NCBI GenBank assembly: GCA_020832515.1
Contig: JAFIEN010000001.1
Location: forward strand, 1-42,896
From: Rubellimicrobium sp.
GTDB taxonomy: Bacteria > Pseudomonadota > Alphaproteobacteria > Rhodobacterales > Rhodobacteraceae
Reading direction: 5' to 3'
Length of the DNA stretch: 42,896 bases
The position numbers were made by a program, and so were the translations under genes. Under the pieces are notes generated by a model. It was not told where the DNA came from and did not search any database. It saw nothing but the letters and a program-made list of their open reading frames with translations. Positions 3,618-32,708 of the stretch are shown piece by piece (positions within the stretch are counted from its first letter, which is position 1; the number at the start of each line of letters is the position of its first letter).

Positions 3618-4172
3618 ATGGCCAGGAAGGGCGAAACCGGGGGCGGCGATCCGGCACTGTCAGACGAAGAGCGCAAGGCCCGTCGCCGTGCCAGGCTGCG
3701 GACCCTGACGGGACAGGCGCCGGCCGGGGCCGCCGAAGCCTCAGGCGGGGCCGGTGATGCCGACGTGCTGGCCGCAATGGGTGGCGGAATGGGTGGCGGT
3801 GGAGCGGCGGGCGGGGCGCCCGAGATGCGCCGCAAGGCCGCGGCCCGGGTCTATCGCATGCTGACCAATACCCCGCCCGACGAGACGGGGATGGTCGAGG
3901 ACACCCCCTTCAGCAAGACCGGTGTGGCCCGCCTCATGGAGGGCCTGCGCGAGCGGGCCGCCAACGAGGGCCAGCCCGGCGCAAAGGTGGCGGCGGGCCT
4001 CTTGAACTTCCTCGCTCCGTCCGAGGGCGAGCCCGAGGTCCATGGCGCCAGCCTCGAGCGTCTTCAGCGTGTCGCCCGCATGGCCGGCACCCGGCTGGGT
4101 GGCGGGATGGGGGGTGGCATGGCCGGGCGGCGCCGTGGTGGTCTTGGCGGCGGGGGGCGCGGCGGTTTCTGA
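3618..4172 (+). CDS. Small unknown protein P1, with a conserved helical core and a Gly/Arg-rich C-terminal tail; paralog of 19795-20487
   Basis: This is the in-frame ATG at 3618 within track ORF 3174-4172, preceded by GGAGG 6 nt upstream. The core RVYRMLTNTPPDETGMVEDTPFSKTGVARLMEGLRERAANEGQPGAKVAAGLLNFLAPSEGEPEVHGASLERLQRVARMA aligns at roughly 40-45% identity (by eye) with P2. The tail is GGGMGGGMAGRRRGGLGGGGRGGF. Confidence 0.7.
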   Translation: MARKGETGGGDPALSDEERKARRRARLRTLTGQAPAGAAEASGGAGDADVLAAMGGGMGGGGAAGGAPEMRRKAAARVYRMLTNTPPDETGMVEDTPFSKTGVARLMEGLRERAANEGQPGAKVAAGLLNFLAPSEGEPEVHGASLERLQRVARMAGTRLGGGMGGGMAGRRRGGLGGGGRGGF

Positions 4173-4399
4173 GGGCTGTTGCCCGATCCAGGGCTCTTCG
4201 CCTCCGGTCGTCCTTCATGGGCGCCAGGGAATGTTTCTCGAGTGATGATTTCCGATCCGTGTCTTGCAGTGCTGTGCCTGTCCCGTCATCAATCCGGGCC
4301 CACTGTTGCAGAGTGCCTCTGTCAGGTTGCTGCGCGATGGAGCAGGATGGCGGGGGTGACGGTCCGGGCCGGGACAGGCCCTGACACGGCGGCGGTACA

Positions 4400-7300
4400 G
4401 TGCAGGAGATGGCAGTGACATCCGGTTTAGAATGCCTTGTGCTGGCGCCCGCAGGTCTGCCTGCCGCGCGTCTGGCTGTGGCCGCTGCCCGGGCCGGAGC
4501 GGTTCCTGTCCTGCCGGTCACGCCCGAGGGTATCGACAGCGCCCTGACCGGGGCGGCGGGGGCGGGGCGGTTCGGCCTGTCCCTGTCCGATCCGGCCCTG
4601 CTGGCCCTGCTGGCCGCCCGCGATGACCTGCCGCCCGCGCTGGCGCTGGTCATCGCCCCGCCCCCGGGTCTGGCCGAGGCCCCCGGGGCTCTTTCCGCCC
4701 AGCCCGCCCCCGGCCGGCGCCGTCTGTGCGAGGCGCGGCGCTGTTCGCAGGATGTGCTGGCGCTGGCCCCCCATATCGACGGCTATGTGCTCAAGGGCCA
4801 TGAATGCGGCGGTGTCGTCTCGGAACAGACGGGCTTCGTCCTGTTGCAGGAGTTTCGCCGCAAGACCGGCCTGCCGCTGTTCGTGCAGGGCGGCATCACG
4901 CCGGAAACGGCGGCCGCCGCGCATGTGGGCGGGGCTTCGGGCGTGGTGCTGGACGACCAGATCCTGCTTCTGGCCGAAAGCCCGCTGACGGACGCCCGCC
5001 TGCGCCGCCGGATCGAGGGGTTTTCCGGCAGCGAGACGCTGCAGGTCGAGGAGATGAGCCTCGGCCTCTATCTGCGCGGCCTCGATGCGCCGGGGGGCAA
5101 GCGTGCCGCCGAATTCGCCGTCCGGCTGCGCGAAAACCCTGCCGCGATCCATGACATCGCCGCGGGATTCTCGTGGCAGCCCGGTGCCGTCGCCCCCGCC
5201 GGTCAGGGGCTGGCGCTGGCCGCAGGGCTGGCGCGGCGCTACCGGACGCTGGGCCGGCTTGTCGGCGCGATTGCCCGCGCGGTCGGCACCCTGCCGGGGC
5301 AGGCCGCCTCGCGCGCGCTACTTGCCGAAGGGGCCCCGCTCGCCCAGAGCCTTGGCACGCGCTACCCGATCCTGCAGGGGCCGATGACGCGGGTCAGCGA
5401 CGTGTCGGATTTCTTCCTGCGCGTGGCCGAAGGTGGCGCACTGCCCTTTGCGGCCCTTGCCCTTCTGTCGGGGCCGCAGACTCAGACCCTGCTGGAGCAG
5501 ACCCGCGATCTTCTGGGGGGACGGCCCTGGGGCGTGGGGATGCTGGGCTTTGCCGACACGCGTGTCCTCGGGCCGCAGATGGAGGCGGTGGACAAGGTCC
5601 GCCCCGATTTCGCGATCATCGCGGGCGGGCGCATCAATCAGGTCATGGAGTTCGAGGGCAAGGGCATTCCCGCCTTCGTCCATGCCTCGACCGCAGGCAT
5701 CATCGCCCATTACCTTGACGAAGGGGTGCGGCGCTTCATCCTGGAAGGGCGCGAATGCGGCGGCCATGTCGGGCCGATGTCGAGCTTCACCCTCTGGGGT
5801 GCTGTGGTCGAGGCGCTGAAGACCCATCCCGTGATTCTGCGCGACGGCAAGCGCGTCCAGATCGTGCTGGCGGGCGGCATCCATGACGCGGCCTCGGCCG
5901 CCATGGCCGCGACCGTGGTCGAACCGCTGGCGGCACAGGCCGTGCAGATCGGCGTCCTGATGGGGACGGGATACCTCTTCACGCGCGAGATCGTGGAGTC
6001 CGGCGCCATCGTCCCCGACTATCAGCAGGTGGCACTCGACTGCGCCGAGACGCGCTGCCTTTGGGAAGGGCCCGGCTTCGCCAGCCGCTGCGCCATCACC
6101 CCCATCGTCGAGGAATTCGTCGAGGCCCGCGCCCGGCTCGAGGCAGACGGGGCCGGCGCGCGCGAGATCCGCGAGACGCTGGAGCATTTCTCGCTGGGCC
6201 GGCTGCGCATGGCGACCAAGGGTCTGGCGCGCACGGGGCCCGAGAAGGAACTGACCGAGATCGGCCCCGAGGAACGCCACCAGAAGGGCATGTACATGAT
6301 CGGCCAGGTGGCCGCGCTCCGCCACGAGGTGCGCAGCATCGCCGAATTTCATGCCGATGTCTCGGCGGGGTCGGTCGCGCATCTGCAGGCACTGGAACGG
6401 GCCGAACCGCTGACAGCTGCCGCACCGCCGCCCGCCGATATCGCCATCGTCGGCATGGCCACGCTCCTGCCCGGGGCGGATACGCTGTCCACCTACTGGC
6501 GGCGCATCCTGACCGGGGAAAGCGCCATCCGCGAGATCCCCGAAGACCGCTGGGACATTGCGGGCCATTTCGATGCCGACCGGACGGTGCGCGACAAGGT
6601 CTATTCCCGCTGGGGGGGCTTCCTCGAGGATGTGGCCTTCAATCCGCTTGATTACGGCATCCCGCCCGGCACGATCGACAGCGTCGATCCGATGCAGCTT
6701 CTGGCGCTCGAACTGGTGTCGGACGCGCTGAAGGATGCAGGCCAAGGTGCGCTCGAGGGGGTGGACCGGGCACGGACCTCGGTCGTCTTCGGCTTTTCGG
6801 GCGGCGTGGGCGAGAAGGGCGCGCAATATGTGGCGCGGTCCGAACTGCCCCGCCTTCTGGGCGAGGTGCCCGGGGATGTTCTCTCGCGCCTGCCGGAATG
6901 GACCGAGGACAGTTTCGCCGGCATCCTGCCCAATGTGGCGGCAGGCCGCGTGGCCAACCGGTTCGATCTGGGGGGGTCGAACATGGTGGTGGATGCGGCC
7001 TGCGCCTCGTCGCTTGCCGCCGTCTATGCCGGCGTGATGGAGCTGGAATCGGGCCGGGCCGACACGGTGATCGCAGGCGGCGTGGACACGCTGCAGGCGC
7101 CTTTCGGCTATCTGTGCTTTTCCAAGACGCAGGCGCTGAGCCCGCGCGGCATCTGCAACACCTTCGACAAGAAGGCCGACGGGATCGTCATTTCCGAAGG
7201 GCTGGCGGCGGTGGTGCTCAAGCGGCGGGCCGATGCCGAAGGCGACGGCGACCGGATCTACGGGGTGATCAAGGGGATCGGCGCCTCGTCCGACGGGCGG

Positions 7301-10300
7301 GCGAAGGGGCTGACGGCCCCCCTTCCCGCAGGCCAGAAACGCGCGCTGGAACGCGCCTATGCGCAGGCCCGCTTCACCCCCGACACGGTCGGGCTGTTCG
7401 AGGCGCATGGCACGGGCACGGTGGCGGGCGACCGGGCGGAACTGGAAACCGTCACCGGATCGCTGCGCGCGGCGGGTGCGGGGCCGCGCAACAGTGCCAT
7501 CGGATCGGTCAAGACGCTGATCGGCCATACCAAGGCCAGTGCGGGCATCGCGGGGCTGATCAAGGTGACGCTGGGCCTGCATCACAAGGTGCTGCCGCCC
7601 CATGCGCAGGTCTCCGATCCCAATGCCGTCTTCGAGGATCCCGAGGCGCCGCTGTATCTTGCGCAAAGCCCGCAGCCCTGGGTGCCCGCCCCGGGCCGTC
7701 CGCGCCGGGCAGGCGTCAGTTCCTTCGGCTTCGGGGGGACGAATTTCCATGTGGCGCTTGAGGAACATGCCGATCCGCATGCCGCAGCACCCCCCGCCGA
7801 TCCGGGGGTGGATGCCCTGCCCTTCGCCTTTGCCGCCGACAGCCGGGAGGCGCTGCTGAAACAGGTGGCCCGGCTCGATCCCGCTGCCGCCCCGGGGCTC
7901 AAAGGTCTCGCGCTGAAGGCGCTGGAGGGGGCGGGCGATGGCCCGGTGCGTCTGGCCTTCACCGCCCGCAGCCTTGACGAGGCGGGTGCCAAACTTGCCG
8001 AAGCGCGGGCCTTTCTCGAAGGCGATGCCCCTGCCCCGCCGCCGGGCCTGCATTATACGCAAGCTCCGCGTCTTGCCTCGGGCGGGCGGCTGGCCTTTCT
8101 CTTTCCCGGTCAGGGCTCGCAATATCCGGGCATGGCGCGGCAGGGGACGATGCTGCACCCGGCCATGCTGGCGGCGCTCGAGACCGCCGAGGCGGCGCTG
8201 GCCGATACGCCGACATTCGGGGGCGGTGGCCGGCGTCTGGCCCGGCTGATCTGGCCGGAAGAGGCCTTCACGCCCGAGGCGCGCAAGGCGCAGATGGCTG
8301 CCCTGACCGCGACCGAGGTGGCCCAGCCCGCGCTTGGCGCGATCGGGGCGGGGATGGCGGGGATGCTGGCCCGGCTGGGGGTGGTGCCCGACATGGTGGC
8401 GGGCCACAGCTATGGCGAATTCGTGGCCCTGCATGTGGCCGGTGCCTTCGATCTGGCCACGCTGATCCGCCTCTCCGAGGCGCGGGGCCGGGCCATGGTC
8501 GAGAATGGCGATCCCGACCGTCCCGGCGCGATGGCCGCCGTCGCCGCCGATGCCCAGACGGTGGAAGCCGCCATCGCGGGGCTGGCGGATGTGGTGCTGG
8601 CCAATCGCAACAGCCCGCGCCAGACGGTGATCGCGGGGCCGCGCGCGGCCATCACGCAGGCCATGGAGGCCGTGACGGCGGCGGGGCTGCAGGTCACCGC
8701 CGTGCCCGTCAGCCAGGCCTTCCATTCGCCGCTGATGGCGGCCGCGCGCGGGCAGTTCGACGCGGCCCTGGCGGCCGTCGACTGGCGCGCGACGCGGCTG
8801 CCCGTCTACAGCAACACGTCCGGGGCCGTGCACGAGGCCGATCCCGACGCGCAGCGCGCGGTCATGAGCGCGCATCTGGTCAGCCCGGTGGAATTCACCG
8901 GCATGATCCGGGCGATGGCAGCGGACGGTGCACGGGTCTTTGTCGAGGTCGGCCCGAAATCGGTGCTTTCGGGCCGGGTGCCGGAGATCCTCGGATCCGA
9001 GGCGGATGTCCGGGCCATCGCGCTCGACCGCGCCTCGGGCGATGCGGCGGCCCTTGCCGAGGGGCTGGCGCAGCTTTTCGTCGAAGGCGCGCGGGTCGAT
9101 CTGGCGGGCCTTGTCGCCGGGCTGGCCGAACCCCTGCCCCGCAGCGTCACCCATGCAGGCGCCGATCCGCGCCATCTGTGGCATCTGAACGGCGCCTATG
9201 CCCGCCGCGCCGATGCAGCCCGCCGCGACACGCGCCTGCCCGCTCCATCCACCCGTTCCCCCGGCCTTTCCCCCGGCCTTTCCCCCACCCTTTCCGCCGC
9301 CCCTTCACCCCTGACCACAGGCCCCGACATGCCCCCCCCTCCGGACGGTTCCGCCGTCCCGCCTGCCCTGCCACGCCTGCAAGAGGAGCTCGAATTCATG
9401 GAGATCCACGATCACGACCCGCCGCCCCCGCCCGGTGGCCCGCCCTCGATCCTGGGCGAGTATCACCGGATGATGCAGGAATTCCTGCGGGTGCAGGAAA
9501 ACGTCATGCTGGCCTATCTGGGCGGCAGTCCCCGGACCGCGCAACCGCTTGCTCCGGTGGCTTCCCCGGCGTTCGCCGCGCCCGCGCCCGTGCCGCGCAC
9601 GATACCCGCCTCCGTTGCGGCCCCTGTTGCGGCCCCCGCTGTCGCCCCTGTCGTTCAGGTCCCGACCCCCGCCCCGACGACCCTCGCCCCGACGACCCCC
9701 ACCATGCCCCCCGCACCCGCGCCGGCACCCGTGCCGGCACCTGTGGCAGCGGTCCCCGCCGGTGGCATCGACCTGATGGGGGCCTTCACCACCATCGTCG
9801 CGGAAAAGACCGGCTATCCCGAGGATGCGCTCGATCCCGATCAGGGGATGGAGGCGGATCTGGGCATCGATTCCATCAAGCGGATGGAGATCCTGGGTGC
9901 GGTGCAGAAGATCCTGCCCGAAACGGCCGCCGAGGCGATGCGCGCCGAGATGGACAGGATCGCGGAACTGTCCACGATCCGCGAGATCGTGGGGTTCATC
10001 GAGGGCCATATGGGTGGTGCGCCCACCACCGGATCACAGGCCACCGGACCACAGGCCACCGGAACGGGAGGGGCCGGGACGGGAGACACGCGCCCTTTTG
10101 ATCCGGCCGGGGAAGATCATGCGGTGACGGCCGTTCTTCCCCGGTACATCCAGGTGCCGTTCCATGAACCCGCCGACCATGTGACCGAGACCCTGCCCCA
10201 GGGCCTGCGCGTTCTGGTCACCGAGGCCGAGGACGGGTTTCATGATCACCTGGTCAGGGTGCTGGCCGATGCCGGGGCCGTGCCTGTCATCCTGCCCCGG

Positions 10301-18750: not shown

Positions 18751-18765
18751 GCCCCCGGCGCAGCG

Positions 18766-19788: not shown

Positions 19789-19794
19789 AGCCGG

Positions 19795-20487
19795 TCAGAA
19801 CCGCCCGAAGCCGCGGCGTCCGGCGGTCCGGGCCCCGCCCGGCCGGCCCCGCATCGCCTCGGCCCGTTTGGCCAGGGTCTGGAGTTTCTCGACGCTGATC
19901 CCGCTTACGGCCGCCTCGCCCTCCTGCGCGGTCAGGAACTGCAGCGCCATGGCCGCAACCCTGGACCCCGGTGCCCCCGGATCCTCGGCGCGCTGGCCCA
20001 GCATCCCCACAAGCTGGGCGACGCCGTAGCGGGTGAAGGGGGTCCCGGGCACCGTCTCGGGATCGGTCGGCGGGATCTGGGTCAGGATGCGATAGACATG
20101 CATCACGATCTGGCGCTGCATCGGCTGCGCGCCCGAGGCGCTGCCGGCGAACTGCATCAGAAGATCGGGAATGCCCTTGCCGGCCTGGGCAAAGGGATCG
20201 CGTCCGGCCGCCTCGTCCACAGGGGGGACAGCTGTGGTGACAGTCGGGGTGACAGCTGTGGTGGGGGCGGGCCTGTCGGGGGTGGCGGCATCCTCGGCAT
20301 CGGGGCTCTGGCTGTCCGGGGATGGCTGGCTGTGCTGGGCCATGATCGCGCCCAGATCGCGCGGGACGGGATCGGCAATCTGCTGACGCCGTGCCTTGAG
20401 CGCATCGAGCCGTGCCTTGCGCTGCTGGAGGCCGCCCGAAGCCGGAAGGGCCTCGTCGGGGGACGTGCCCTGGTCGTCATTTGCCAT
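19795..20487 (-). CDS. Small unknown protein P2, paralog of P1
   Basis: This is the internal ATG at 20487 within track ORF 19795-20595, preceded by GGGGAG 6 nt upstream. The core HVYRILTQIPPTDPETVPGTPFTRYGVAQLVGMLGQRAEDPGAPGSRVAAMALQFLTAQEGEAAVSGISVEKLQTLAKRA aligns with P1. The tail is Gly/Arg-rich, ...RGRPGGARTAGRRGFGRF. Confidence 0.7.
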   Translation of the reverse strand: MANDDQGTSPDEALPASGGLQQRKARLDALKARRQQIADPVPRDLGAIMAQHSQPSPDSQSPDAEDAATPDRPAPTTAVTPTVTTAVPPVDEAAGRDPFAQAGKGIPDLLMQFAGSASGAQPMQRQIVMHVYRILTQIPPTDPETVPGTPFTRYGVAQLVGMLGQRAEDPGAPGSRVAAMALQFLTAQEGEAAVSGISVEKLQTLAKRAEAMRGRPGGARTAGRRGFGRF

Positions 20488-20591
20488 GAAAACTCCCCTC
20501 GCACCGCAATGCACTGATGTCGCGCGGACCTTAGACACTCGGCCCGGGTCAGGCAATCGGGCTTTCCCCGCCGGGTCCTGCGACAGGAAGG

Positions 20592-21701: not shown

Positions 21702-22672
21702 GTCCTGCCTCCGGCCCCCATCGCCTTGCCCCCCTCGCTTTGTCCCTGTTGCCTTGCCTGCCGCCCGTCATCCGCGCCGTCCTGTCCGTCATAGCCCAGG
21801 ATCGCGGCCAGAAGCCGCGTCTCGGAGCCGAAATGGACGACCCGGTCCTCGACCCATTCGAGCGGATCGTCGAGGGTCTCGGGCTTGATCTTGCCGATCC
21901 GGAGCGCGGGATTCGCCATGAAGCCGGGGTTGTTGCCGTTCTTCGCATTGTCCGGCCCCGGTCGGGCGAAGGGCGAATCCTCGGGGTGCAGCATCGCCCC
22001 GATCGCGGCCTCGGCGTCGTCGAGATCCATCCAGGCGCAGATCTGGCGCAGGATCGGGGCCGGATCCTCGAAGAAATCCTCGCCCCTGAGATACATGTAT
22101 TGCCCCGGCGCCAGACCGCGTCCGAAATCGAGCAATTCGCGATGCCGCCTGGTCCAGAGCATCTCGAGATCGGTCGTATCCATCTGACGCCCCCGCCGGT
22201 TGCGATAGGCCGCAGCCGCCCGCGACCGGCAGGTGGCGCGGGGGTGGCGGGCCAGATGCAGATACCAGGCATCGGGATAGGCGCGATGGAGCTGGCGCAG
22301 GGCCTTGCCTTGCGAATTGGTCGGGCTCTTGTCCACCAGCGCGCGGGGGGCGGCCATCTTGCGCAATTCCTCGAACATGCGCGCGCCGGTCCAGTCCTCA
22401 TGCCCGCGCAGCCAGTCGTTGACCTGGTTGACGGTTTCCTCGGTCTGCACCCCGAACATGAGTTCCGCCACCGCCCGGCGCAGCCCGGTCATCGCGCCGG
22501 GGATGCCGAAGAAGGGGATATCGGCATCCATCAGGTCGCGCACGGTGGGGGCGATGAAGAGATTGACCTCGGGCAGGCCGAACATCTGCGGATGCTGGCC
22601 AATCGCGGCGCAGACGACCGAGGAAAACGACCGGCCGGGGCAGAGGATGAACAGGGGCTGGCGCAGCGTCAT
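21698..22672 (-). CDS. Sulfotransferase-family protein ST1
   Basis: 324 aa. The N-terminal P-loop-like 5'-PSB region is PLFILCPGRSFSSVV. The 3'-PB-like region is WYLHLARHP. A later YLRGEDFFEDPAPILRQICAWMDL resembles the sulfotransferase C-terminal signature. It is a paralog of ST2 and ST3. The start overlaps the ST2 stop as ATGA. Confidence 0.7.
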   Translation of the reverse strand: MTLRQPLFILCPGRSFSSVVCAAIGQHPQMFGLPEVNLFIAPTVRDLMDADIPFFGIPGAMTGLRRAVAELMFGVQTEETVNQVNDWLRGHEDWTGARMFEELRKMAAPRALVDKSPTNSQGKALRQLHRAYPDAWYLHLARHPRATCRSRAAAAYRNRRGRQMDTTDLEMLWTRRHRELLDFGRGLAPGQYMYLRGEDFFEDPAPILRQICAWMDLDDAEAAIGAMLHPEDSPFARPGPDNAKNGNNPGFMANPALRIGKIKPETLDDPLEWVEDRVVHFGSETRLLAAILGYDGQDGADDGRQARQQGQSEGGKAMGAGGRT

Positions 22673-23622
22673 GGGGGGGTGGTTTCCTTGACCGGGTAAA
22701 GCGTCGTGGCCGCCTCGGGATAGCCCAGTTGCAGGGCAAGGGCGACGGTTGCGGGCGCGGGGCGGCGGCCCCCTTCCGTCCAGTCGAGGGGCGTGTCGAG
22801 TGCGGGCATCTCGATGGCACGGGGCGCATAGACGGGATTGCGCAGGAAGGCCGGATCATTGCCGAAGGGGGCCGATTCGGGGCCGACCCGCGCATAGGGC
22901 GAAGCCTCGGGATGGCGCATCGCGGCCAGATCTGCAGGGGTCGCCGGAATGTCCAGCCACTCGCAGATCTGGGCAAGGTAGCGGTCGGGATCGGTCAGCA
23001 GATCCTCGCCCCGGATCGCCATGAACCGGCCCGGCGCGATCCGGGGGGCAGCGTCCAGGATGGCGCTGTTGATCCGCAACCAGAGAAGCTCGGGATCGCG
23101 CCCGGAGGCCCGGGCACCCGGGCCGAACCCCTTGCCATGACCCGTGATCTTCGCGATCGAGGCCGTGGTCGCCACGGGATGGCGATAGAGATGCAGGAAC
23201 CGCGCCTCGGGGAAAAGCGCGATGGCGCAGGCGATCCGGTCGGGCTGCAGCACGGTGCTGGGGCTTTTCTCGACCAGCATGGCCGGGGCCGCCCGGGCGG
23301 CGAACCAGCCCATCAGGTCGGTCGGGCTCCAGTCGCGCCGCTCGGCCAGAAAGCGGCGGGCGCGGGCCAGGCCCTGTTCGGTCTGGGCCCCGTACTCCAG
23401 TTCGGCCACCGCCCGGTAGAGCCCGTCGAGCGTGCGCTTGCGGACCATCTGCAGAAGGTCGATCGCGGTGCCGAGGCGGGTGTCGATGAAGGGATTGACC
23501 TCGGGCAGGGCGTAAAGCGCCGGATGCTGCCCCAGCATGGAACTGACCAGCGAGGAATAGGATCGCATGCAGGTCAGGATGAACAGCGGCTGGTTCGGGA
23601 TCTGGGGCAAGGTCGGGGTCAC
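22669..23622 (-). CDS. Sulfotransferase-family protein ST2
   Basis: The track ORF runs to GTG 23676. I prefer GTG 23622 because GGAG lies 6 nt upstream. Motifs: PLFILTCMRSYSSLV, RFLHLYRHP, AIRGEDLLTDPDRYLAQICEWLDI. Confidence 0.7.
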   Translation of the reverse strand: MTPTLPQIPNQPLFILTCMRSYSSLVSSMLGQHPALYALPEVNPFIDTRLGTAIDLLQMVRKRTLDGLYRAVAELEYGAQTEQGLARARRFLAERRDWSPTDLMGWFAARAAPAMLVEKSPSTVLQPDRIACAIALFPEARFLHLYRHPVATTASIAKITGHGKGFGPGARASGRDPELLWLRINSAILDAAPRIAPGRFMAIRGEDLLTDPDRYLAQICEWLDIPATPADLAAMRHPEASPYARVGPESAPFGNDPAFLRNPVYAPRAIEMPALDTPLDWTEGGRRPAPATVALALQLGYPEAATTLYPVKETTPP

Positions 23623-23685
23623 ACTGGCTCCGTCATCGTGTCTTCTGGACCGGGCCGCGCATCCCCCGGGTGTCACACCCCGGTG

Positions 23686-24708
23686 TCACTGGGCCAGGAA
23701 GAACCGGGCGATATGCCCGGTCGCGTCGAAATGGGGCGAGACATAGACGTCGTTGCGCTCTTGCCAGCGGGCCGGGTCGATCCCGGGCCAGCCATGCCCG
23801 CCGCCCGAGACGGTGCAGAACTCGACCACCTCGCGGGTGCCGCAGGTCCTGATCTCGCAGGTCGTGTCCTGGGCGGGCTGGGTCACGGACGTGCCCAGCG
23901 TACACTGGTTGCGCTCCTGGAACAGCGCGATCCCGTTCAGGACGCTGGGATAATTGGCCCGGGCCGCCGACATGGTGCCGGCGCCGCCCTGCAGGGGCAC
24001 GTTCTGGTCGTTGCTGCCGTGGATATGCAGCAGGCTGACGCCGGTCGCCCCGATGCAGCGGTCCACCGCCATCGTGCCCGCGACCACGGCAATGGCCGAC
24101 AGCCGCTCGGGCATCTCGCAGGCCAGGCGATAGGCCATCATCCCCCCCGCCGAAAGCCCCGCGGCAAAGACGCGCGAGCGGTCGGCCGGATAGCGGGCCA
24201 GCACTTCATCGAGCATCGCGCCGACAAAGCCCGTGTCATCCACCCCGCTGCGCGCGGCAAAGCCCACGGGCGAGGCCCCCCCGGTATTCCACGATCCCCG
24301 GACCCCCTCGGGCACCACGAGCAGGAAGCCGTATCGGTCGGCCATCTCGACCAGGCCGGTGCGCGCGGCAAAGCTTTGCGGATCGCCGCCGCCGCCGTGA
24401 AAGGCCAGCATCACCGGCAAGGCCCCTGCCCCGCCTGCCGCAGGCTGATGGACGAAATAGCGCCGCGTCTCGCCGCCATGGGGCAGGGTGAAGGCGGTGA
24501 ACTGGCCCGAGGCCTCGGGCGCGGCCGAAATCGACTGGCGCTGGCGCTGGGTCTGCTGGCCGCCCTGCCGGTCGCGGTCCGCCCCCATCACCTCGCGCCA
24601 TTCGCGCACCGGGTTCACGCCGCCCGGCCCCCCCACGCAGGCCACGACCCAGACCGAAGCCGACAGCACAAGCCCCAGAACCAGAAGCGTGCGGGCGCGT
24701 TTTCTCAT
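23686..24708 (-). CDS. Secreted lipoprotein esterase of the PHB-depolymerase / LpqC (feruloyl-esterase-like) family
   Basis: 340 aa. The signal peptide has a lipobox (LVLSASVWVVAC). Family motifs are PVMLAFHGGGGD, VDDTGFV and the nucleophile elbow AAGLSAGGMMAY. The start overlaps the upstream stop as ATGA (24705-24708). Confidence 0.78.
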   Translation of the reverse strand: MRKRARTLLVLGLVLSASVWVVACVGGPGGVNPVREWREVMGADRDRQGGQQTQRQRQSISAAPEASGQFTAFTLPHGGETRRYFVHQPAAGGAGALPVMLAFHGGGGDPQSFAARTGLVEMADRYGFLLVVPEGVRGSWNTGGASPVGFAARSGVDDTGFVGAMLDEVLARYPADRSRVFAAGLSAGGMMAYRLACEMPERLSAIAVVAGTMAVDRCIGATGVSLLHIHGSNDQNVPLQGGAGTMSAARANYPSVLNGIALFQERNQCTLGTSVTQPAQDTTCEIRTCGTREVVEFCTVSGGGHGWPGIDPARWQERNDVYVSPHFDATGHIARFFLAQ

Positions 24709-26225
24709 GATGCGGGGTTCCTCTGCGATCCAAGCCAGATTTCCAGACCGCCATCGGGATTGGGGACATAGTCGAAGCGGCCGTCCTCGAGATCGACGCC
24801 GACGAAAGGACCGAAGGGATTGACGAACCCGGCGGCCAGCCCGTGCGGCGTCGATTGCAGGGTCCTTATGCCATAATTGTAGGGGTTACCGAAACCTTGC
24901 GTGGTGACGGGCAGCCAGTTTTCGCCGTCGCGGCTGCGATAAAGCTCGGCCCCGCCGCGCATCGCGATGAAGTTTTCCATCCCGTAGCGGTCGAGCATGG
25001 CGGTGAAGGGCTGCGGCCAGTTGGTCCGTTCCGAATAGCGCAGCATCACCGACCAGTCGAAAGTGCCAAGGTAGAGCCAGCCGTCATGGCTTTCCATCTG
25101 CCAGAAATAGCCGTTGAACGGATTGTCGAAACCCGGCGCAAAGCCCGAAAGCGGGATCTTCATGCCCTCGGGCGTGTCGCGCTGGTAGCCCACGACCAGA
25201 TCCCACTGACCGTCCTCGTAGATGCGGATCAGTTCGGGGCCGGCGGGGCCGATCCTGTTCACCCGGTCGATCCCGCCGTGCTGGATGCCGCTGCCCGCAT
25301 AGAGCAGGCCGTCATGGGCGGCGAAGGAGGCGACCCCCTGATTGAGCGCGCCCCGCCATGCGCCGTTCACGATCACGCGCTCCCAGTCGTAGGGGGCGCG
25401 GCCCTCGGCCCGGGTGCGCCAGATCTGGTAGCCCCGCCCGTTGCCGGTGCCCGCGTAAAGATAGTCACCGCAGGCCGCCATCTCGAAGACGCCCAGATTC
25501 TCGCGATCGCCGAAGCCGGGCGTGTTGACCAGTTCCCAGTTGCCGCCCGCGGGATCGCTTGACGCATAGACGATGGCATTGCCCGCGATATTGGGATTGC
25601 CGCCCGCCGTGCCGGTGGGGCTGGTGAAGAGGCGGCCCTTGAAGGGCACCAGAAGCCGCAGGGTGATGATCGACCGGTCGAAACCGGCAGGCATCGGGAT
25701 CTCGTCGAACTGCGCCCCGTCGGCCGAGCGCAGGATGCGTGTCCCCTGCCCGCGCGCGGGCGTGTAGGTGGCGACGTAAAGGTGGTCATGGGCGTCCGAG
25801 GCGCCCTTGAAGACGCACATCCCCCGATAGCCCAGTTCGCGCGGAAGCTGTTCGCCCTCGGCATCGATCCAGGGCGCCTGCGACACGAGGCTCCAGCCCG
25901 CGTTTTCCACCCCCGGCCGGGCGGCGGCCGGATCGAAGCTCCAGATCTGGGCGCGCATGTCCTGGTCATAGACGCGCTCGGGGCATTTGACGGGCCAGCG
26001 GTCCAGCTTCTTGGCGATCTTCGAAACCTTGAACAGGCACAGGTTGCTGCGTGTCGTGCCCACGATCAGCCGGTCGCGGAACCAGCCCATGGAATGGGGA
26101 TAGGAATTGAGCGCATCGCCGAAACCGTTCCGCGCGATCCGGGTGAAATCGCGCGGCCCAAGGCCCCGGCCCGGCCCCCAGCGCCCGTCCTGGCCGGCCG
26201 CCCCGACGCGGAACTGCCCGGTCAT
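24705..26225 (-). CDS. Unknown 506-aa protein, beta-propeller-like repeat architecture
   Basis: It contains repeated Gly/Trp/Tyr-rich strands (YLYAGTGNGRGYQIWR, LLYAGSGIQHGG, WLYLGTFDW, ELYRSRDGENW). I see no signal peptide. Its C-terminal part is paralogous to ORF 20592-21701. Confidence 0.6.
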   Translation of the reverse strand: MTGQFRVGAAGQDGRWGPGRGLGPRDFTRIARNGFGDALNSYPHSMGWFRDRLIVGTTRSNLCLFKVSKIAKKLDRWPVKCPERVYDQDMRAQIWSFDPAAARPGVENAGWSLVSQAPWIDAEGEQLPRELGYRGMCVFKGASDAHDHLYVATYTPARGQGTRILRSADGAQFDEIPMPAGFDRSIITLRLLVPFKGRLFTSPTGTAGGNPNIAGNAIVYASSDPAGGNWELVNTPGFGDRENLGVFEMAACGDYLYAGTGNGRGYQIWRTRAEGRAPYDWERVIVNGAWRGALNQGVASFAAHDGLLYAGSGIQHGGIDRVNRIGPAGPELIRIYEDGQWDLVVGYQRDTPEGMKIPLSGFAPGFDNPFNGYFWQMESHDGWLYLGTFDWSVMLRYSERTNWPQPFTAMLDRYGMENFIAMRGGAELYRSRDGENWLPVTTQGFGNPYNYGIRTLQSTPHGLAAGFVNPFGPFVGVDLEDGRFDYVPNPDGGLEIWLGSQRNPAS

Positions 26226-26244
26226 GCGGGCAAGGTCCCCGGCG

Positions 26245-26583
26245 TCACAGCAGGTCTTCCTGTTGCAGGGGCTGGGCAGGCTTCAGCCGGGCAAGTTCCT
26301 CCAGCACCTCCTCGAGCATGATCTCGAGCACATCGGCCCAGCGTTCGAGCTTGAGCCGGTATTGCTGGTCGTCCTCGCTTTCGGCCGGAAGCGCGGTGCC
26401 GTCGGCGGCGAACTGGCGGCGCGTCTCCTCATAGACCTCGCGGGCGAGATAGGCGAGTTTCGGATCGGCGAGGATGCGGAAGTAGTTCAGGCCGCGCGGC
26501 TCTCCTCCCTCCATCTCGAGGCCGAATTCGGCGCCCAGGGCCTCGCGGTGGTCGGGCGCGCGCAGCGGATGCAGGACAGCCAT
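26245..26583 (-). CDS. Small acidic hypothetical protein (112 aa)
   Basis: ATG 26583 lies 2 nt after the ST3 stop; the track lists a TTG start at 26589. The sequence looks helical and Glu/Leu-rich (WADVLEIMLEEVLEELARL). I recognise no family. Confidence 0.5.
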   Translation of the reverse strand: MAVLHPLRAPDHREALGAEFGLEMEGGEPRGLNYFRILADPKLAYLAREVYEETRRQFAADGTALPAESEDDQQYRLKLERWADVLEIMLEEVLEELARLKPAQPLQQEDLL

Positions 26584-26585
26584 CG

Positions 26586-27695
26586 TCAATACCCCAAGGC
26601 CCGGGCCAGATCCTGGACCCGGGGGTGCAGCGCCTCGCCATCCTTGCGCCAGGGCAGCGGCCGGTCGAGCGGCGGGATCGGGATGGGGTCCTCGCGCAGT
26701 TCGGGCGAGTTGAGGAAGTTCACGTCATTGCCCAGCGGCGCATTGGCCGGACCCATGCAGGAATAGGGCGACCGTTCGGGGTGGCGCATCTCGTCGATCG
26801 CCTCGGGCGCGTCGGAGATGCCCAGCCAGCGGCAGAGTTCCGGCAGATGGGTCTCCAGATCGCCGAGGAACGCCTCGCCGCGCAGCGTCACGAACTGCTC
26901 GTCGGGCAGGGTGTCGAGGAAGCGCAGGATCTGCACCTGCGCATTGTACCAGGCGATCTGCGGCTCGAGGGCCGCGACCTCGCCGCGCAGGTCGATGGAA
27001 TTGAGCGCCATCAGCACGCCGATCCCGCCCTTGGTCTTGAAGACCGATTGCCCCTGCGGGATCGGGTGGCGCACCAGATGGATGAACTTCGCCCCCGGAA
27101 AGGTCTCGAGCATCCGGTCGAGATAGGCGCGCTGGCGCAGCACGCCGGGGCTTTTCTCGACGATGCGGCGGGGGGCGACGGCCTCGGCCAGTTCGGTGAA
27201 GACCTCGCCCGAGGTCATGAGTTCGCGGTTCTTGAGCCAGCGTTCGGCCATGCGGATCGCCTCGGGCGTCTGCTCGCCGGCATGGATCTGGGCCACCGCC
27301 CGCAGAAGGCCGTGGCGCATCGACGCCCAGAAGGGCGATTTCTTGGTGCCGGCCGGCGTCAGCCCGGTGTTGAACTCCTCGATCAGGTCGCACTGGAACA
27401 GGTTCAGCTCGGGCATCCCGTAAAGTTCGGGATGCTGGCCGATCATCGCCGCCACAAGCGACGAGAAGGACCGCGGCGCGGCCAGGATGAAGACCGGATC
27501 GGCATGCAGCGGGGCGCGGTCGGGAACGGGGGCGGGCCGCAGCGCGGGTTCGGGCGCGGGAAAGGGGCCGGGGGCCTGATCGGCCTCGACCTTGATCTCG
27601 GTCTTGGGCCCGGTCTTGGTCCTGGGCTTGGCCTTTGCCTTCGGCTTGGCCTTGGTCTTGGTCTTGCGCCCGGAGGGCGGGGTCGTGTCGGTCAT
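26586..27695 (-). CDS. Sulfotransferase-family protein ST3 with a Lys/Ala/Pro/Thr-rich N-terminal extension
   Basis: The start is taken at ATG 27695, which overlaps the upstream stop as ATGA (27692-27695); the track ORF extends to 27782. The N-terminus is MTDTTPPSGRKTKTKAKPKAKAKPRTKTGPKTEIK. Catalytic-domain motifs are PVFILAAPRSFSSLV, KFIHLVRHP and TLRGEAFLGDLETHLPELCRWLGI. Confidence 0.7.
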   Translation of the reverse strand: MTDTTPPSGRKTKTKAKPKAKAKPRTKTGPKTEIKVEADQAPGPFPAPEPALRPAPVPDRAPLHADPVFILAAPRSFSSLVAAMIGQHPELYGMPELNLFQCDLIEEFNTGLTPAGTKKSPFWASMRHGLLRAVAQIHAGEQTPEAIRMAERWLKNRELMTSGEVFTELAEAVAPRRIVEKSPGVLRQRAYLDRMLETFPGAKFIHLVRHPIPQGQSVFKTKGGIGVLMALNSIDLRGEVAALEPQIAWYNAQVQILRFLDTLPDEQFVTLRGEAFLGDLETHLPELCRWLGISDAPEAIDEMRHPERSPYSCMGPANAPLGNDVNFLNSPELREDPIPIPPLDRPLPWRKDGEALHPRVQDLARALGY

Positions 27696-28582
27696 GGCTT
27701 CACCCCTTCGAGGAAGGGCACTTCGAAGACCTTCTCGTGCAGGATCGGCCCGTGGCCGAAGTAATCGCCCTCGCCGAAACATTCGCCATGGTCCGAGGCG
27801 ATGATGAAATGCGTGCCCCTGGGCGCCTTCGCGATCAGGGCGTCCAGCACGCGGTCGACATATTCGACGCAGCGGATCTGCTGTTCATGCAGCGCCGTCA
27901 TCGCCTCCTGGGTGAAGAACTCGGGCTCCTCCTCCCCGGCATCCACGGCACTCTCACCCTGCCGCGCGATGGCCCCGTCCATGCCCTTGACCACCCCGTG
28001 CACGCCCGAGATCACCGGCAGATCCCCGTCCTTGAGCATGTAGGGATAATGCGTCTCGCCCAGATTGAGGAAGTGGTAGCAGGGCTGGTCGGCGGAAAAG
28101 GCGATCTCGTCCACCATGCCCGCGAAATCGTTGTGATCCTTCATCAGCCGGTAGGTGTCGAAGAAGCGCGAAAACGCGGTCAGCGGATTCAGGACCGGCA
28201 TCGAGACCCGCGCCTCGGTCCGGTAGCCGCGCTTCTGCAGCACCTTGGCAAGGCTCAGTTCGGGCACGAAGGTCTTGAAGGACAGATCCGGCATGTCGAG
28301 CCGGTCCACCCACCGGGCATATTCCTTCTTGTAGACCTCGGAGGCCAGGACCCGCGTCGGGCTTTTATGCGCGACCTGCCCCATGAAGATCGAATGATGC
28401 GAGGGCGCCGTCCAGGACGCATAGCTGTAGCGCTGCTCTGCGGTGGCGATGCGGTCCATGTTGGGATGGCGCGCGCGGGCGTAGCTGTCGAAGCGGCAGC
28501 TGTCCATGATGATATAGACAAGATCACGCGGCATCAGGAATTCCGGGGCTTCGGCAGGGCATGATCGGGGCGGGAAAGGCAC
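27692..28582 (-). CDS. Small alkaline-phosphatase-superfamily (sulfatase/phosphotransferase-like) metalloenzyme
   Basis: 296 aa from GTG 28582; ATG 28534 is an alternative start. Motifs: IIMDSCRFDS (metal Asp), YASWTAPSHHSIFMG (candidate Ser/Thr nucleophile region) and IIASDHGECFGE (the DHG motif of the AP/sulfatase fold). Confidence 0.65.
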   Translation of the reverse strand: MPFPPRSCPAEAPEFLMPRDLVYIIMDSCRFDSYARARHPNMDRIATAEQRYSYASWTAPSHHSIFMGQVAHKSPTRVLASEVYKKEYARWVDRLDMPDLSFKTFVPELSLAKVLQKRGYRTEARVSMPVLNPLTAFSRFFDTYRLMKDHNDFAGMVDEIAFSADQPCYHFLNLGETHYPYMLKDGDLPVISGVHGVVKGMDGAIARQGESAVDAGEEEPEFFTQEAMTALHEQQIRCVEYVDRVLDALIAKAPRGTHFIIASDHGECFGEGDYFGHGPILHEKVFEVPFLEGVKP

Positions 28583-28627
28583 GGCAGGACAGGCGGCACC
28601 CGGGAAAGCACCTCGGGCAACCGGTCC

Positions 28628-29713
28628 TCAGTCCCGCCCTTTTTCTGCACGGCGGCTGCGGATCTCGGTGGCCAGCGCCTTGCGGGTATGCGCGCGCCAG
28701 AGCCGGGCGCCCTCCTGGGGTGTTGCGGCGCGGGCGGCCTCGGCCTCGGGCAGGGGATCGAGGCGGCCAAGGCGGCAGGCCTCGCGGTAATGGGTGATCG
28801 CGGCCTCGGGATCGTCGGATTTCAGCGCGATATCGCCCTCGAGCTTGGCCACGACGGGGCGCAGCACGGCCTGATCGCCCAGTTCCCCCATGATCTTGCG
28901 GGCCCGCTCGAATTCCCCCGCCCGGATCAGCGCGGTGATGTAGCGCAGCTTGTTGGCCGGGGTCGTCCGTCCCTCGGCCTCCATCCGCGCATATTCGGCA
29001 TCGGCATGATCGGTCTTGCCCGCCATTGCGCCCACCAGCGCAAGACGGCGCGCGCGGAAGCTGTCGTCGGGATGGGCCGCGGCATCGGCCCTGAGGAAAT
29101 CAAGCGCCTCGTCACTGCGGTCCTCGCGCTGCATCAGGCGCACATAGGCGCGCAGCACCCGGCGGTTCTCGGGGTTGGCCGCGATGATCCCCTTGAGTTC
29201 ATGGATGGCAAGATCGGTGCGCCCCTGCCGCATCTGGATCCGCGCGATCAGTTCGCGCGCGCGCTCGATCCCGGGATCGAGGTCGAGCACCTTTTCGCAC
29301 AAGGCCAGCGCATCCTCGTAGCTTTCATCGGCCATCTTGACGGCGGCGGCCCCCAGATGCGCGCGGGCCGAGCCGGAATCCAGCCGGATGGCGGCGGCAA
29401 AGGCCTCGGCCGCGGGGGCGGTGTCGCCCTTGCGGATGTTGATCAGGCCGGTGGCGATCAGCGGATCGGCTTCGAGCGGGGCCAGGCTGCGGGCCTTGGC
29501 GGCGGCGCGCAGGGCATCGTCGAACTTGCGCTGCTTGGCCAGAACCCGGGCAAGCGCCAGAAAGGCCTGCGGCGTCTGCGGCCCCTGACGCAGGTTCTCG
29601 ACAAGGGCGCGTTCGGCGGCCGGCAGGCCCTGGGTGCGTTCGATCTGCCGCACCTCGGCCAGCTTGCCACGCTGATTTGCGGCCGATCCGTCGGCGGGGG
29701 GGGAAACAGCCAC
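28628..29713 (-). CDS. Tetratricopeptide-repeat protein, first gene of the minus operon
   Basis: 361 aa. The GTG start at 29713 has GGAG 7 nt upstream. It contains repeated about-34-aa Ala/Leu-rich helical pairs (e.g. AFLALARVLAKQRKFDDALRAAAKARSLAP; YEDALALCEKVLDLDPG). Confidence 0.7.
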   Translation of the reverse strand: MAVSPPADGSAANQRGKLAEVRQIERTQGLPAAERALVENLRQGPQTPQAFLALARVLAKQRKFDDALRAAAKARSLAPLEADPLIATGLINIRKGDTAPAAEAFAAAIRLDSGSARAHLGAAAVKMADESYEDALALCEKVLDLDPGIERARELIARIQMRQGRTDLAIHELKGIIAANPENRRVLRAYVRLMQREDRSDEALDFLRADAAAHPDDSFRARRLALVGAMAGKTDHADAEYARMEAEGRTTPANKLRYITALIRAGEFERARKIMGELGDQAVLRPVVAKLEGDIALKSDDPEAAITHYREACRLGRLDPLPEAEAARAATPQEGARLWRAHTRKALATEIRSRRAEKGRD

Positions 29714-32690: not shown

Positions 32691-32708
32691 GAAGAAACCC
32701 TGTTACTA

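Follow-up and report, generated by a model that had tools for sequence, protein, structure and literature searches.

A PfaA-like synthase cluster with accessory sulfotransferases on a probable Rhodobacteraceae plasmid and its relatives in several phyla

Two convergent operons in a 42,896-nucleotide stretch of Rubellimicrobium sp. DNA (hereafter the window) form one functional unit, a conclusion supported by gene linkage that persists through shuffling of gene order and across phyla and is therefore not accidental. The core of this unit consists of two synthase proteins (PKS1 and PKS2), a discrete acyl carrier protein (ACP), an NPP phosphodiesterase, an alpha/beta-hydrolase and a beta-propeller protein, often joined by a lipoprotein esterase and a HlyD-like protein. 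Sulfotransferases are an accessory layer and not part of the core. We give roughly an even chance to the view that this is one conserved unit for the biosynthesis of a "secondary lipid" that is exported and, in Proteobacteria, O-sulfated as a tailoring step.

Organization and conservation of the locus

The plus operon ends at 19788 and the minus operon at 19795. ORF and coordinate checks, together with pairwise alignments, placed every gene, the three paralogous families and all five ATGA overlaps (12643-46, 21698-701, 22669-72, 24705-08 and 27692-95) where the original prediction had put them. The call for the third sulfotransferase (ST3) needed refinement: a sulfotransferase is encoded there, but the real ST3 is a 369-aa protein and not a 398-aa ORF. 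Its start was confirmed and forms an ATGA overlap with the AP-like gene's stop. The features are as follows.

393-3283, minus: HlyD-like membrane-fusion protein with a large N-terminal membrane domain (tblastn with a 771-aa Rhodovulum ortholog)
3618-4172, plus: P1, 184 aa, Gly/Arg-rich tail, paralog of P2 (coding GC pattern by codon position; BLASTP)
4400-12646, plus: PKS1, PfaA-like iterative type I synthase, ER(FabK/NMO)-KS-AT-ACP-KR-DH (Pfam, NCBIfam)
12643-16530, plus: PKS2, KS-AT-(linker)-PPTase, the PPTase ACPS-type; start overlaps the PKS1 stop (ATGA)
16707-16982, plus: discrete ACP, 91 aa, FDSID motif (translation; tblastn)
17050-18678, plus: cytoplasmic NPP-clade phosphodiesterase/pyrophosphatase, alkaline-phosphatase (AP) superfamily (PF01663, E 2e-39)
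18766-19788, plus: alpha/beta-hydrolase (PF00561, PF12697)
19795-20595, minus: P2, 266 aa, paralog of P1 (BLASTP)
20592-21701, minus: 369-aa partial paralog of the 506-aa propeller (BLASTP E 2e-12)
21698-22672, minus: ST1, CurM/Ols-type sulfotransferase (PF13469, E 9e-23)
22669-23676, minus: ST2, sulfotransferase (PF13469, E 8e-26)
23686-24708, minus: lipoprotein esterase, PHB-depolymerase/feruloyl-esterase family (PF10503)
24705-26225, minus: 506-aa beta-propeller, cluster marker, unnamed conserved family (AF2)
26245-26583, minus: 112-aa acidic protein, no family match (gene call present in four independent assemblies)
26586-27695, minus: ST3, 369-aa sulfotransferase, Lys/Pro-rich N-terminal extension (PF13469, E 4e-24)
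27692-28582, minus: small cytoplasmic AP-superfamily enzyme, sulfatase/EptA-like fold (PF00884, E 2e-9)
28628-29713, minus: TPR protein, first gene of the tailoring operon (multiple TPR Pfam families)
29873-33275, minus: rmlA, rmlD, rmlB, rmlC (dTDP-rhamnose; Pfam), context genes whose membership in the cluster is not shown

A RepA-I-type initiator and ParA in the window support the predicted location on a Rhodobacteraceae plasmid. The absence of a transporter component, also predicted, holds between 3618 and 29713, but on the minus strand, at about 393-3283, a conserved HlyD-like gene lies just outside. It is divergent from P1 and upstream of it, so the cluster is wider than first stated.

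The propeller served as the marker for related loci. It has 1,599 homologs, every one labelled hypothetical. Of 53 loci with such a homolog, counted at species level, 50 have at least one partner gene adjoining. These loci occur in Alpha- and Gammaproteobacteria, Thauera (Betaproteobacteria), Myxococcota, Acidobacteriota, Nitrospiria and Planctomycetes. Where at least 8 kb was available on each side of the propeller (16 loci), 12 loci contained a PKS, 13 a sulfotransferase and 11 the NPP enzyme plus hydrolase. Loci in the order PKS1-PKS2-ACP-NPP-hydrolase-propeller(-esterase-HlyD) turn up repeatedly, in Chromatiales, Myxococcota, Nitrospiria, Pirellulaceae and Acidobacteriota, and the NPP gene is always followed by that of the hydrolase in related loci. 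The tailoring operon is upstream of PKS1 in Rhodovulum and Roseovarius, and convergent and downstream in the present locus. Counting against a single unit, one MAG has an NPP-hydrolase-propeller-esterase-ST-ST operon that lacks a PKS within 10 kb.

P1 and P2 share 42% identity over 132 aa (E 4e-25); P1, which had no Pfam match, also precedes PKS1 in Rhodovulum, Roseovarius and Celeribacter. The 506-aa propeller was modeled with high confidence (AF2 pLDDT 91.9), matched only generic propeller folds and had no match in Pfam or NCBIfam; the 369-aa paralog is 34% identical to it over 119 aa. Orthologs of this paralog, and of the 112-aa acidic protein, occur in Rhodobacterales loci, and the triad of TPR protein, AP-like enzyme and ST3 is conserved in Alphaproteobacteria and Thauera.

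The synthase and its core partners

By their domain content, PKS1 and PKS2 make up a self-activating Pfa-family iterative type I FAS/PKS. Between them they carry two KS domains, both predicted to be active, and two ATs, together with KR, DH, ER and a fused PPTase. Pfam and NCBIfam matches and intact catalytic motifs bore out the motif-level domain calls made originally: the active-site Cys is kept in both KS domains and GHSxG in both ATs, and YAAAN (KR), HxxxGxxxxP (DH) and WSVKEA (PPTase) are present, as is a FabK/NMO-type ER at PKS1 residues 314-657 (NCBIfam). PfaA (TIGR02813) was the best NCBIfam match for both proteins, PKS1 scoring 964 bits, under the cutoff of 1010. Distant orthologs of PKS2 have the arrangement KS-AT-DH-PPTase. 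The discrete ACP is conserved in 8 related loci (tblastn), with a faint PP-binding match in its ortholog.

Shulse and Allen typed secondary lipid synthase genes by KS phylogeny, left the product of their Type O unknown and listed Parvularcula bermudensis HTCC2503 as a Type O host (PMC3098273). The present synthase probably belongs to this "Type O secondary lipid synthase" (Shulse & Allen 2011), a placement made from architecture, PPTase motif and shared host, whereas Type O itself is defined by KS phylogeny. Both are Pfa-related iterative type I FAS/PKS systems of marine Alphaproteobacteria with an hShxH motif in the PPTase (here ISLSH); unlike the present cluster, Type O is described in that paper without mention of sulfotransferases or of NPP, propeller, esterase or HlyD-like partners. 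In P. bermudensis HTCC2503, a PKS1 homolog has as its neighbors genes for the propeller, esterase, sulfotransferase, AP-like enzyme and TPR protein. The claim that the locus has no characterised counterpart was thus overstated, since its synthase architecture was catalogued in 2011 as uncharacterised Pfa-like "Type O" and a host of that type has the propeller beside the PKS. No publication on the cluster as a whole emerged from our literature search, and our scans did not recover Dinoroseobacter.

The AF2 model of the NPP enzyme (pLDDT 88.8) most resembled ENPP1/3/5/6, Xac NPP and phosphonoacetate hydrolase, and the invariant NPP residues are D10, T54, D217, H224, D278, H279 and H431. The alpha/beta-hydrolase, whose PDB relatives are generic esterases, is a candidate for chain release or transfer. 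The smaller AP-like enzyme has Thr at the nucleophile position (motif WTAPSH) and gave a weak match to the STM4013 family (66 bits; cutoff 250).

Sulfotransferases and envelope genes

All three sulfotransferases match PF13469 and retain PAPS-type motifs in alignment (RSxS loop, catalytic PE, KSP and RHP), which settles in the affirmative whether they are sulfotransferases. They are 37-40% identical to one another. The only PDB matches of ST1 at E≤1 were 4GOX (3.5e-20) and 4GBM (1.9e-12), the sulfotransferase domains of Ols and CurM, respectively, and CurM/Ols are the only solved relatives of the three. Each of ST1, ST2 and ST3 has its own ortholog in related loci (54-69% identity, versus 33-39% to the other two paralogs), which points to three distinct jobs. 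No PAPS-synthesis genes were found within the window.

Sulfotransferases are almost confined to Proteobacteria. Clusters without any occur in Acidobacteriota, Nitrospiria, Myxococcota, Pirellulaceae and Chromatiales, and those of Acidobacteriota have methyltransferases and epimerase/reductase-family proteins in their place. Because these clusters retain PKS-ACP-NPP-hydrolase-propeller, sulfation looks like a swappable tailoring reaction and not a release step. The proposal of a sulfated or sulfonation-activated lipid keeps its enzymatic basis in true PAPS-type sulfotransferases, but these enzymes are accessory and absent from the clusters just named. Counting against sulfate as tailoring, the nearest characterised relatives use it as a leaving group and not as a final decoration.

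Two findings strengthen the suggested link to the envelope: the lipoprotein esterase is exported, and the HlyD-like gene is conserved. The esterase, alone among cluster proteins, has a signal peptide and lipobox (VVAC); its PDB relatives are a feruloyl esterase and a PHB-depolymerase-family esterase. The HlyD-like gene is present in at least 19 related loci, and its orthologs contain HlyD_D23 and HlyD_3 domains. Counting against an export step, the gene is disrupted here, being split over two frames (3175-2372 and 1637-393; 50% and 45% identity, respectively, to the Rhodovulum ortholog), and no ABC, RND or outer-membrane partner was found within the window.

Related systems and possible products

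Four known systems other than Type O resemble parts of the cluster. ArsA/ArsD, the type I FAS for Azotobacter phenolic lipids, comprises two Pfa-related proteins with an integrated PPTase and passes its long acyl chain straight to downstream enzymes. The present synthase shares this two-protein organization, but the cluster has no type III PKS partner and its downstream enzymes are wholly different; the ArsA/ArsD class is Type P (PMC3098273). The heterocyst glycolipid (hgl) island, with DevBCA/HgdD export, likewise combines a PfaA-like synthase, a long-chain envelope lipid and HlyD-family membrane-fusion export, whereas the window lacks a thioester-reductase (HglB-type) domain, glycosyltransferase and ABC partner, and sulfotransferases replace sugar transfer; one ortholog bears the annotation "putative glycolipid synthase". 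The sulfolipid-1 locus of M. tuberculosis (Pks2, Stf0, PapA1/2, MmpL8, Chp1, Sap; for Chp1 and Sap, PMC3318749) offers the same combination of PKS lipid, PAPS sulfotransferase, dedicated export and extracytoplasmic esterase-fold enzyme. Its protein families are unrelated, however (Stf0 versus PF13469/CurM-like sulfotransferases); its sulfate is on a sugar, and the present cluster has no trehalose, PapA or MmpL component. The ACP-ST-TE module of CurM/Ols has sulfotransferase domains homologous to ST1-3, with the same RSxS, PE, KSP and RHP motifs, and an ACP and alpha/beta-hydrolase are also present here. In contrast to that fused tridomain, the cluster proteins are discrete, and three sulfotransferase paralogs, dispensable across the cluster family, are encoded away from the ACP and a hydrolase that is not CurM-TE-like in PDB ranking.

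In the pathway that we favor, the synthase would build a long, largely reduced chain that retains hydroxyls, on its own or the discrete ACP, and the hydrolase would offload it, helped by the NPP enzyme and propeller. No hydroxylase is present in the cluster, so the retained hydroxyls must come from programmed skipping of dehydration, which is not visible in sequence. In Proteobacteria, the three non-redundant PAPS-dependent sulfotransferases of CurM/Ols lineage would O-sulfate these hydroxyls, assisted by the TPR protein and small AP-like enzyme. The anionic lipid may cross the inner membrane with the HlyD-like protein, after which the periplasmic lipoprotein esterase could trim or transfer it at the envelope.

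One or more of the sulfotransferases might instead activate the chain as in CurM/Ols, sulfonating a beta-hydroxyacyl group on the discrete ACP so that thioester cleavage by the hydrolase and decarboxylative loss of sulfate yield a terminal alkene, a long-chain hydrocarbon and no sulfolipid. The structural relatives of ST1, the invariance of the catalytic Glu and PAPS-binding residues, and the ACP and hydrolase in the same cluster all favor this route. We regard it as a serious but much less likely rival: the 3-4 non-redundant sulfotransferases per locus exceed the need of one elimination, their genes are in the other operon from the ACP and hydrolase, and an exported esterase is not obviously needed for a hydrocarbon. 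Moreover, CurM TE is absent from the hydrolase's 60 best PDB relatives, and the hydrolase is conserved in clusters without any sulfotransferase, which indicates that release is independent of sulfonation.

It is doubtful, too, that the PKS makes a lipid anchor and that the rhamnose-containing surface glycan attached to it (RkpA/capsule-like, or sulfated LPS/EPS) is what the sulfotransferases, the AP-like enzymes and the TPR protein modify. In favor of such a system, RepA-I plasmids of Rhodobacteraceae often bear rhamnose operons, the rml genes are directly upstream of the minus operon on the same strand, the cluster is bordered by sugar-nucleotide epimerase/dehydratase genes in Parvularcula and Acidobacteriota, and a lone ABC-2 permease is encoded at 35826-36701. 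The originally noted rfb connection is real here, but such adjacency was found only in this window and Rhodovulum (2 lineages among 53 loci). Neither the window's cluster nor the gene annotation of five related loci showed a glycosyltransferase, polymerase, flippase or Wzx/Wzy/Kps gene, and the sulfotransferases are of the acyl-ACP-acting CurM lineage, not the carbohydrate lineages NodH, Stf0 and Sulfotransfer_1. A canonical PUFA (EPA/DHA-type) synthase with irrelevant neighbors would explain the PfaA match but is very improbable given its subthreshold score, one ACP domain only, no FabA-type DH/isomerase or PfaC-like KS-CLF, and a PPTase motif that Shulse and Allen assigned to non-PUFA types M-T (PMC3098273). 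Finally, the window's integrase-like gene and plasmid replication module, and the finding of the cluster on no plasmid in PLSDB, would suit accidental neighbors on a mosaic plasmid. That explanation is effectively refuted by synteny: co-occurrence of PKS and minus-operon genes in relatives, proposed at the outset as a test of linkage, was seen in dozens of genomes, which represent several phyla and several gene orders.

Gene content of the cluster

Long spurious ORFs are common in DNA of ~70% G+C such as the window, and every reported gene was therefore checked by profile searches and by its codon-position GC pattern. These checks confirmed the predicted content of two convergent operons: a plus-strand operon that ends at 19788, and a minus-strand tailoring operon that is transcribed from the TPR gene towards P2 and ends, as predicted, at 19795.

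Features of the cluster and its surroundings (coordinates in the window, strand, description)
~393-3283, minus: HlyD-like gene, divergent from P1; HlyD_D23 and HlyD_3 domains
3618-4172, plus: P1; no family match (Pfam, NCBIfam)
4400-12646, plus: PKS1; FabK/NMO-type enoyl reductase (residues 314-657), KS, AT, one ACP, KR, PKS-type DH
12643-16530, plus: PKS2; KS, AT, ACPS-type PPTase
16707-16982, plus: discrete ACP, 91 aa
17050-18678, plus: NPP phosphodiesterase, 542 aa (PF01663)
18766-19788, plus: α/β-hydrolase
From 19795, minus: tailoring operon; from low to high coordinate, P2, 369-aa protein, sulfotransferases ST1 and ST2, esterase, 506-aa protein (propeller), 112-aa protein, sulfotransferase ST3, AP-like enzyme, TPR protein
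Directly upstream of the TPR gene, minus: rmlA, rmlD, rmlB, rmlC
33473-34525, plus: DUF2793 protein, between rmlC and the integrase-like gene
34685-42894: plasmid backbone; integrase-like gene, ABC-2 permease, replication initiator, ParA, RTX-repeat protein

All five ATGA overlaps lie where the original prediction had placed them, and the paralogies it proposed were borne out for P1 and P2 (E 4e-25), the 369-aa and 506-aa proteins (E 2e-12), and ST1-3 (37-40% mutual identity). The length first read for ST3 was corrected: its start is at the ATGA, giving 369 aa. The cluster, originally taken to begin at P1, extends further leftward to include the HlyD-like gene. Neither P2 nor the 369-aa, 506-aa and 112-aa proteins matched a Pfam or NCBIfam family. 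Conservation of the minus-strand 112-aa gene, and its being called in independent assemblies, led us to discard a plus-strand ORF at 26104-26766 as an antisense artefact. Several cluster proteins carry disordered basic segments: ST3 has a Lys/Pro-rich N-terminal extension of ~60 aa (27515-27695), and P1 (3618-4172) and P2 (19795-20595) have Gly/Arg-rich C-terminal tails (RGGF, GRF).

At least 19 related loci carry the HlyD-like gene, whose product has an uncharacterised N-terminal region of ~450 aa that appears by inspection to be membrane-embedded. The window copy is divided between two frames, with a low-complexity insert of ~240 aa (Ala-, Gly-, Pro- and Asp-rich) at the division, and its C-terminal frame reaches the left window edge without a stop codon. 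A pseudogene, a pair of separate genes and an assembly error are all conceivable explanations.

A conserved unit around a Pfa-family synthase

The propeller, our marker for the cluster, is ~55% identical between classes and has more than 1,500 homologs, every named one of which is annotated as hypothetical. Scanning one genome per species with a propeller-family alignment yielded 53 loci, from Proteobacteria (Rhodobacterales, Parvularculaceae, Rhodospirillales, Beijerinckiaceae, Competibacteraceae, Chromatiales) and from Myxococcota, Acidobacteriota, Nitrospiria, Pirellulaceae and Anaerolineae. When all window proteins were compared to these loci by tblastn, 50 of the 53 proved to have one or more partner genes within the flank available. 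Sixteen loci offered 8 kb or more on each side; a PKS was found in 12 of these, a sulfotransferase in 13, and NPP plus hydrolase in 11.

PKS and minus-operon genes thus co-occur in relatives, as expected from the original view of one cluster, and they do so in several gene orders. The most distant phyla show the arrangement PKS1-PKS2-ACP-NPP-hydrolase-propeller, and in Chromatiales the propeller is followed by the esterase and then an HlyD-family protein. The PKS genes of Thauera run directly into genes for TPR, AP-like, ST, propeller, propeller paralog, HlyD-like, P1-like, esterase and ST proteins. The tailoring operon of Rhodovulum and Roseovarius sits upstream of P1-PKS1 and a divergent HlyD-like gene. 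Their synthase operon ends after the hydrolase, followed by unrelated genes; these same two blocks are convergent in the window. Linkage that outlasts both rearrangement and phylum-level divergence effectively excludes an accidental neighbourhood of two operons. Together, the results show that the cluster genes form one biosynthetic unit, with a self-priming iterative Pfa-family synthase at its centre.

Both KS domains of the synthase keep the catalytic Cys and His, and neither is a CLF because both retain the Cys; GHSxG is present in both ATs, and KR, DH and PPTase likewise have intact motifs. The PfaA model TIGR02813 scored 964 bits against PKS1 and 524 bits against PKS2, both below its curated cutoff of 1010. 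PP-binding domains number one in PKS1 plus the discrete ACP, and the PKS-type PS-DH is the only dehydratase present. The sub-cutoff scores and the lack of tandem ACPs, of the FabA-like DH/isomerase expected of Pfa systems, and of a KS-CLF effectively exclude a canonical Pfa-type PUFA synthase (pfaABCDE).

Pfa-like "secondary lipid synthases" were catalogued by Shulse & Allen (2011, PMC3098273), who assigned the PPTase P1b' motif hShxH to types M-T. Hosts of their Type O, whose product is uncharacterised, are Dinoroseobacter shibae, Parvularcula bermudensis HTCC2503 and Gloeobacter violaceus (PMC3098273). The C-terminal region of PKS2 carries ISLSH, which fits this motif, and in P. bermudensis HTCC2503 the genes for a propeller, an esterase, a sulfotransferase, an AP-like enzyme and a TPR protein neighbour that of a PKS1 homolog (628 bits). 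On this synteny and the PPTase motif, the synthase is very probably of Type O, and the original prediction, which recognised no characterised counterpart, overstated its novelty. Dinoroseobacter was not among the best 120 matches to PKS2, and neither Dinoroseobacter nor Gloeobacter proteins were found among the matches listed. The full-text literature searched, PMC3098273 included, yielded no description of the partner genes or product and no paper describing the full cluster. Orthologs are named "type I polyketide synthase", "alkaline phosphatase family protein", "hypothetical protein" and, once, "putative glycolipid synthase".

Not all partners are equally constant. Compact clusters in Acidobacteriota, Nitrospiria, Myxococcota, Pirellulaceae and Chromatiales have no sulfotransferase, and the central role originally given to sulfation was thus overstated. 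These clusters keep NPP, hydrolase, propeller and ACP (the last detected in three). Only Alphaproteobacteria and Thauera have the TPR/AP-like/ST3 triad, the 112-aa protein and P1/P2. In the cluster from an Acidobacteriota MAG (L054), methyltransferases and epimerase/reductase-family proteins stand in place of the sulfotransferases, which suggests alternative tailoring of the same scaffold.

In detail, the L054 stretch 8280-15139 encodes a second propeller (weak PQQ_2 match), two epimerase/3beta-HSD/NAD_binding_4 proteins, one of them fused to a methyltransferase, and a further methyltransferase. A locus from a Gammaproteobacteria MAG (L062, 7465-15822; JACKNE010000017) carries an operon of NPP, hydrolase, propeller, esterase, two STs and a 412-aa unknown. 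No PKS lies within 10 kb of it, so linkage of the post-synthase module to the synthase is not obligatory.

Sulfotransferases, partner enzymes and the proposed product

The only PDB sequence relatives of ST1 at E≤1 were 4GOX, the ST domain of a cyanobacterial olefin synthase (3.5e-20), and 4GBM, that of CurM (1.9e-12). Aligning ST1-3 with both domains revealed an invariant phosphosulfate-binding RSxS loop, PE pair, KSP and RHP (residues R14, S15, S17, E35, K115, S116, P117, R142, H143 and P144); the Glu of the PE pair is presumably the catalytic base, as in work on CurM. Pfam assigned all three proteins to PF13469 only, apart from an additional weak PF00685 match in ST2. These matches and invariant motifs confirm the predicted sulfotransferase fold and make activity likely; as judged from sequence, the link to CurM/Ols is one of homology and not only of analogy. 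ST1, ST2 and ST3 are each 54-69% identical to their own ortholog in relatives and 33-39% identical to the other two paralogs, and are therefore functionally distinct.

The NPP (PF01663, E 2e-39) gave an AF2 model with pLDDT 88.8, whose closest folds are ENPP1/3/5/6, the Xanthomonas (Xac) NPP and phosphonoacetate hydrolase (PhnA). D10, T54 (the Thr nucleophile), D217, H224, D278, H279 and H431, the metal ligands and nucleophile, are invariant in 38 homologs. The enzyme is thereby confirmed as an NPP-clade phosphodiesterase/pyrophosphatase with a modelled bimetal site, the model giving the clade rather than a substrate; it has no signal peptide and is therefore cytoplasmic. The best PDB relatives of the hydrolase are generic esterases, PcaD-like enzymes and haloperoxidases, and the CurM TE was not among the 60 listed. 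The esterase, a lipoprotein of the PHB-depolymerase/feruloyl-esterase family, is the only secreted cluster protein. The AP-like enzyme, in which Thr occupies the nucleophile position, only weakly resembles sulfatases, EptA and the STM4013 family. The propeller was modelled as a beta-propeller (AlphaFold, pLDDT 91.9) and matched only generic propellers in the PDB (Bub3, lectins, lactonase-like proteins, glycosidases; TM≤0.47), so no function could be transferred.

Comparison with known systems places the locus as an orphan Pfa-type lipid cluster, in which the defined, widely conserved partner set and the proteobacterial layer of CurM-lineage sulfotransferases are new. The ST homologs share PAPS-binding and catalytic residues with CurM/Ols. 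In those systems, however, ACP, ST and TE are fused or contiguous at the end of the terminal module, whereas here the STs are discrete and lie in a convergent operon, and NPP stands between the ACP and the hydrolase. Unlike the hgl island (HglB-type thioester reductase, HglT glycosyltransferase), the cluster ORFs of the window had no NAD_binding_4/TER or glycosyltransferase match; unlike the mycobacterial sulfolipid-1 system (Stf0, PapA, MmpL), they have STs of PF13469 and no PapA or MmpL domain.

The core of the original prediction, a sulfated or sulfonation-activated, long-chain reduced polyketide lipid, is reasonable. We favour, with moderate confidence in the model as a whole, an exported long chain that is O-sulfated as tailoring in Proteobacteria. 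The synthase would make a long, largely reduced chain retaining some hydroxyl groups, which the hydrolase would offload, with NPP and propeller acting in an undefined step. In Proteobacteria the chain would be O-sulfated at up to three positions; it would be exported with the HlyD-like protein and then processed by the periplasmic esterase. We read the sulfate as a retained decoration because the release machinery persists where sulfotransferases are gained or lost, and because several non-redundant paralogs are encoded apart from the ACP and hydrolase genes.

The main rival, that the sulfotransferases activate the chain for CurM/Ols-type release as an alkene, is made a serious one by their homology to the corresponding ST domains, although we regard it as rather unlikely in view of that same distribution and placement. 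Modification of a glycan seems rather improbable: it is suggested by the adjacent rml genes, whose importance was overstated in the original prediction, but this adjacency occurs in only two lineages and no glycosyltransferase was found. A further-reaching and more tentative reading is possible though doubtful. The cluster may specify a widespread, previously unrecognised class of sulfated, polyketide-derived Gram-negative envelope lipid (a long-chain hydroxyacyl or alkyl polysulfate), in which CurM-lineage sulfotransferases would install permanent sulfate esters and not leaving groups. Release and maturation would involve novel chemistry, with the cytoplasmic NPP acting on a phosphopantetheine-, CoA- or PAPS-linked intermediate and the propeller representing a new beta-propeller enzyme family.

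Most types of secondary lipid synthase, catalogued since 2011, are still without a known product. One type now has a fixed, previously undescribed partner set (NPP, hydrolase, propeller, exported esterase and HlyD-like membrane protein) that ranges from marine roseobacters to wastewater Competibacter, Acidobacteriota and Nitrospiria, and that gains sulfotransferases of the rare CurM/Ols lineage in Proteobacteria. Identifying the product would give functions to four or more families still lacking a Pfam model, would test whether "activating" sulfotransferases can make stable sulfolipids, and could reveal a common, overlooked anionic envelope lipid in environmentally important bacteria. The pathway is a well-defined, experimentally tractable and broadly distributed orphan, and current expectations are not overturned.

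Replicon and transcriptional features

The prediction that the cluster is plasmid-borne is well supported: beside ParA, the replication initiator is of RepA-I type and 70-74% identical to RepA-I of Rhodobacteraceae plasmids, including a 153-kb Dinoroseobacter shibae plasmid. The ABC-2 permease of the backbone stands alone, without an ATPase partner, and the RTX-repeat protein runs off the window. In PLSDB, a 24-kb megablast query returned only trivial 40-80-bp Ralstonia matches and a tblastn search with the propeller returned no match, indicating that the cluster is absent from catalogued plasmids despite the RepA-I-type replicon.

An Rfam scan was empty. A tRNA-Ala(cgc) called by ARAGORN inside PKS1 (10963-11038, minus) was dismissed as almost certainly spurious, the coding DNA here being GC-rich. 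The promoter and terminator scan performed no better than on shuffled sequence; at this level, a sigma-70-like match at 29810-29837 (minus; TTGACC, 16 nt, TAGCAT), within the 159 nt that separate rmlA from the TPR gene, is a hint that the tailoring operon has its own promoter.
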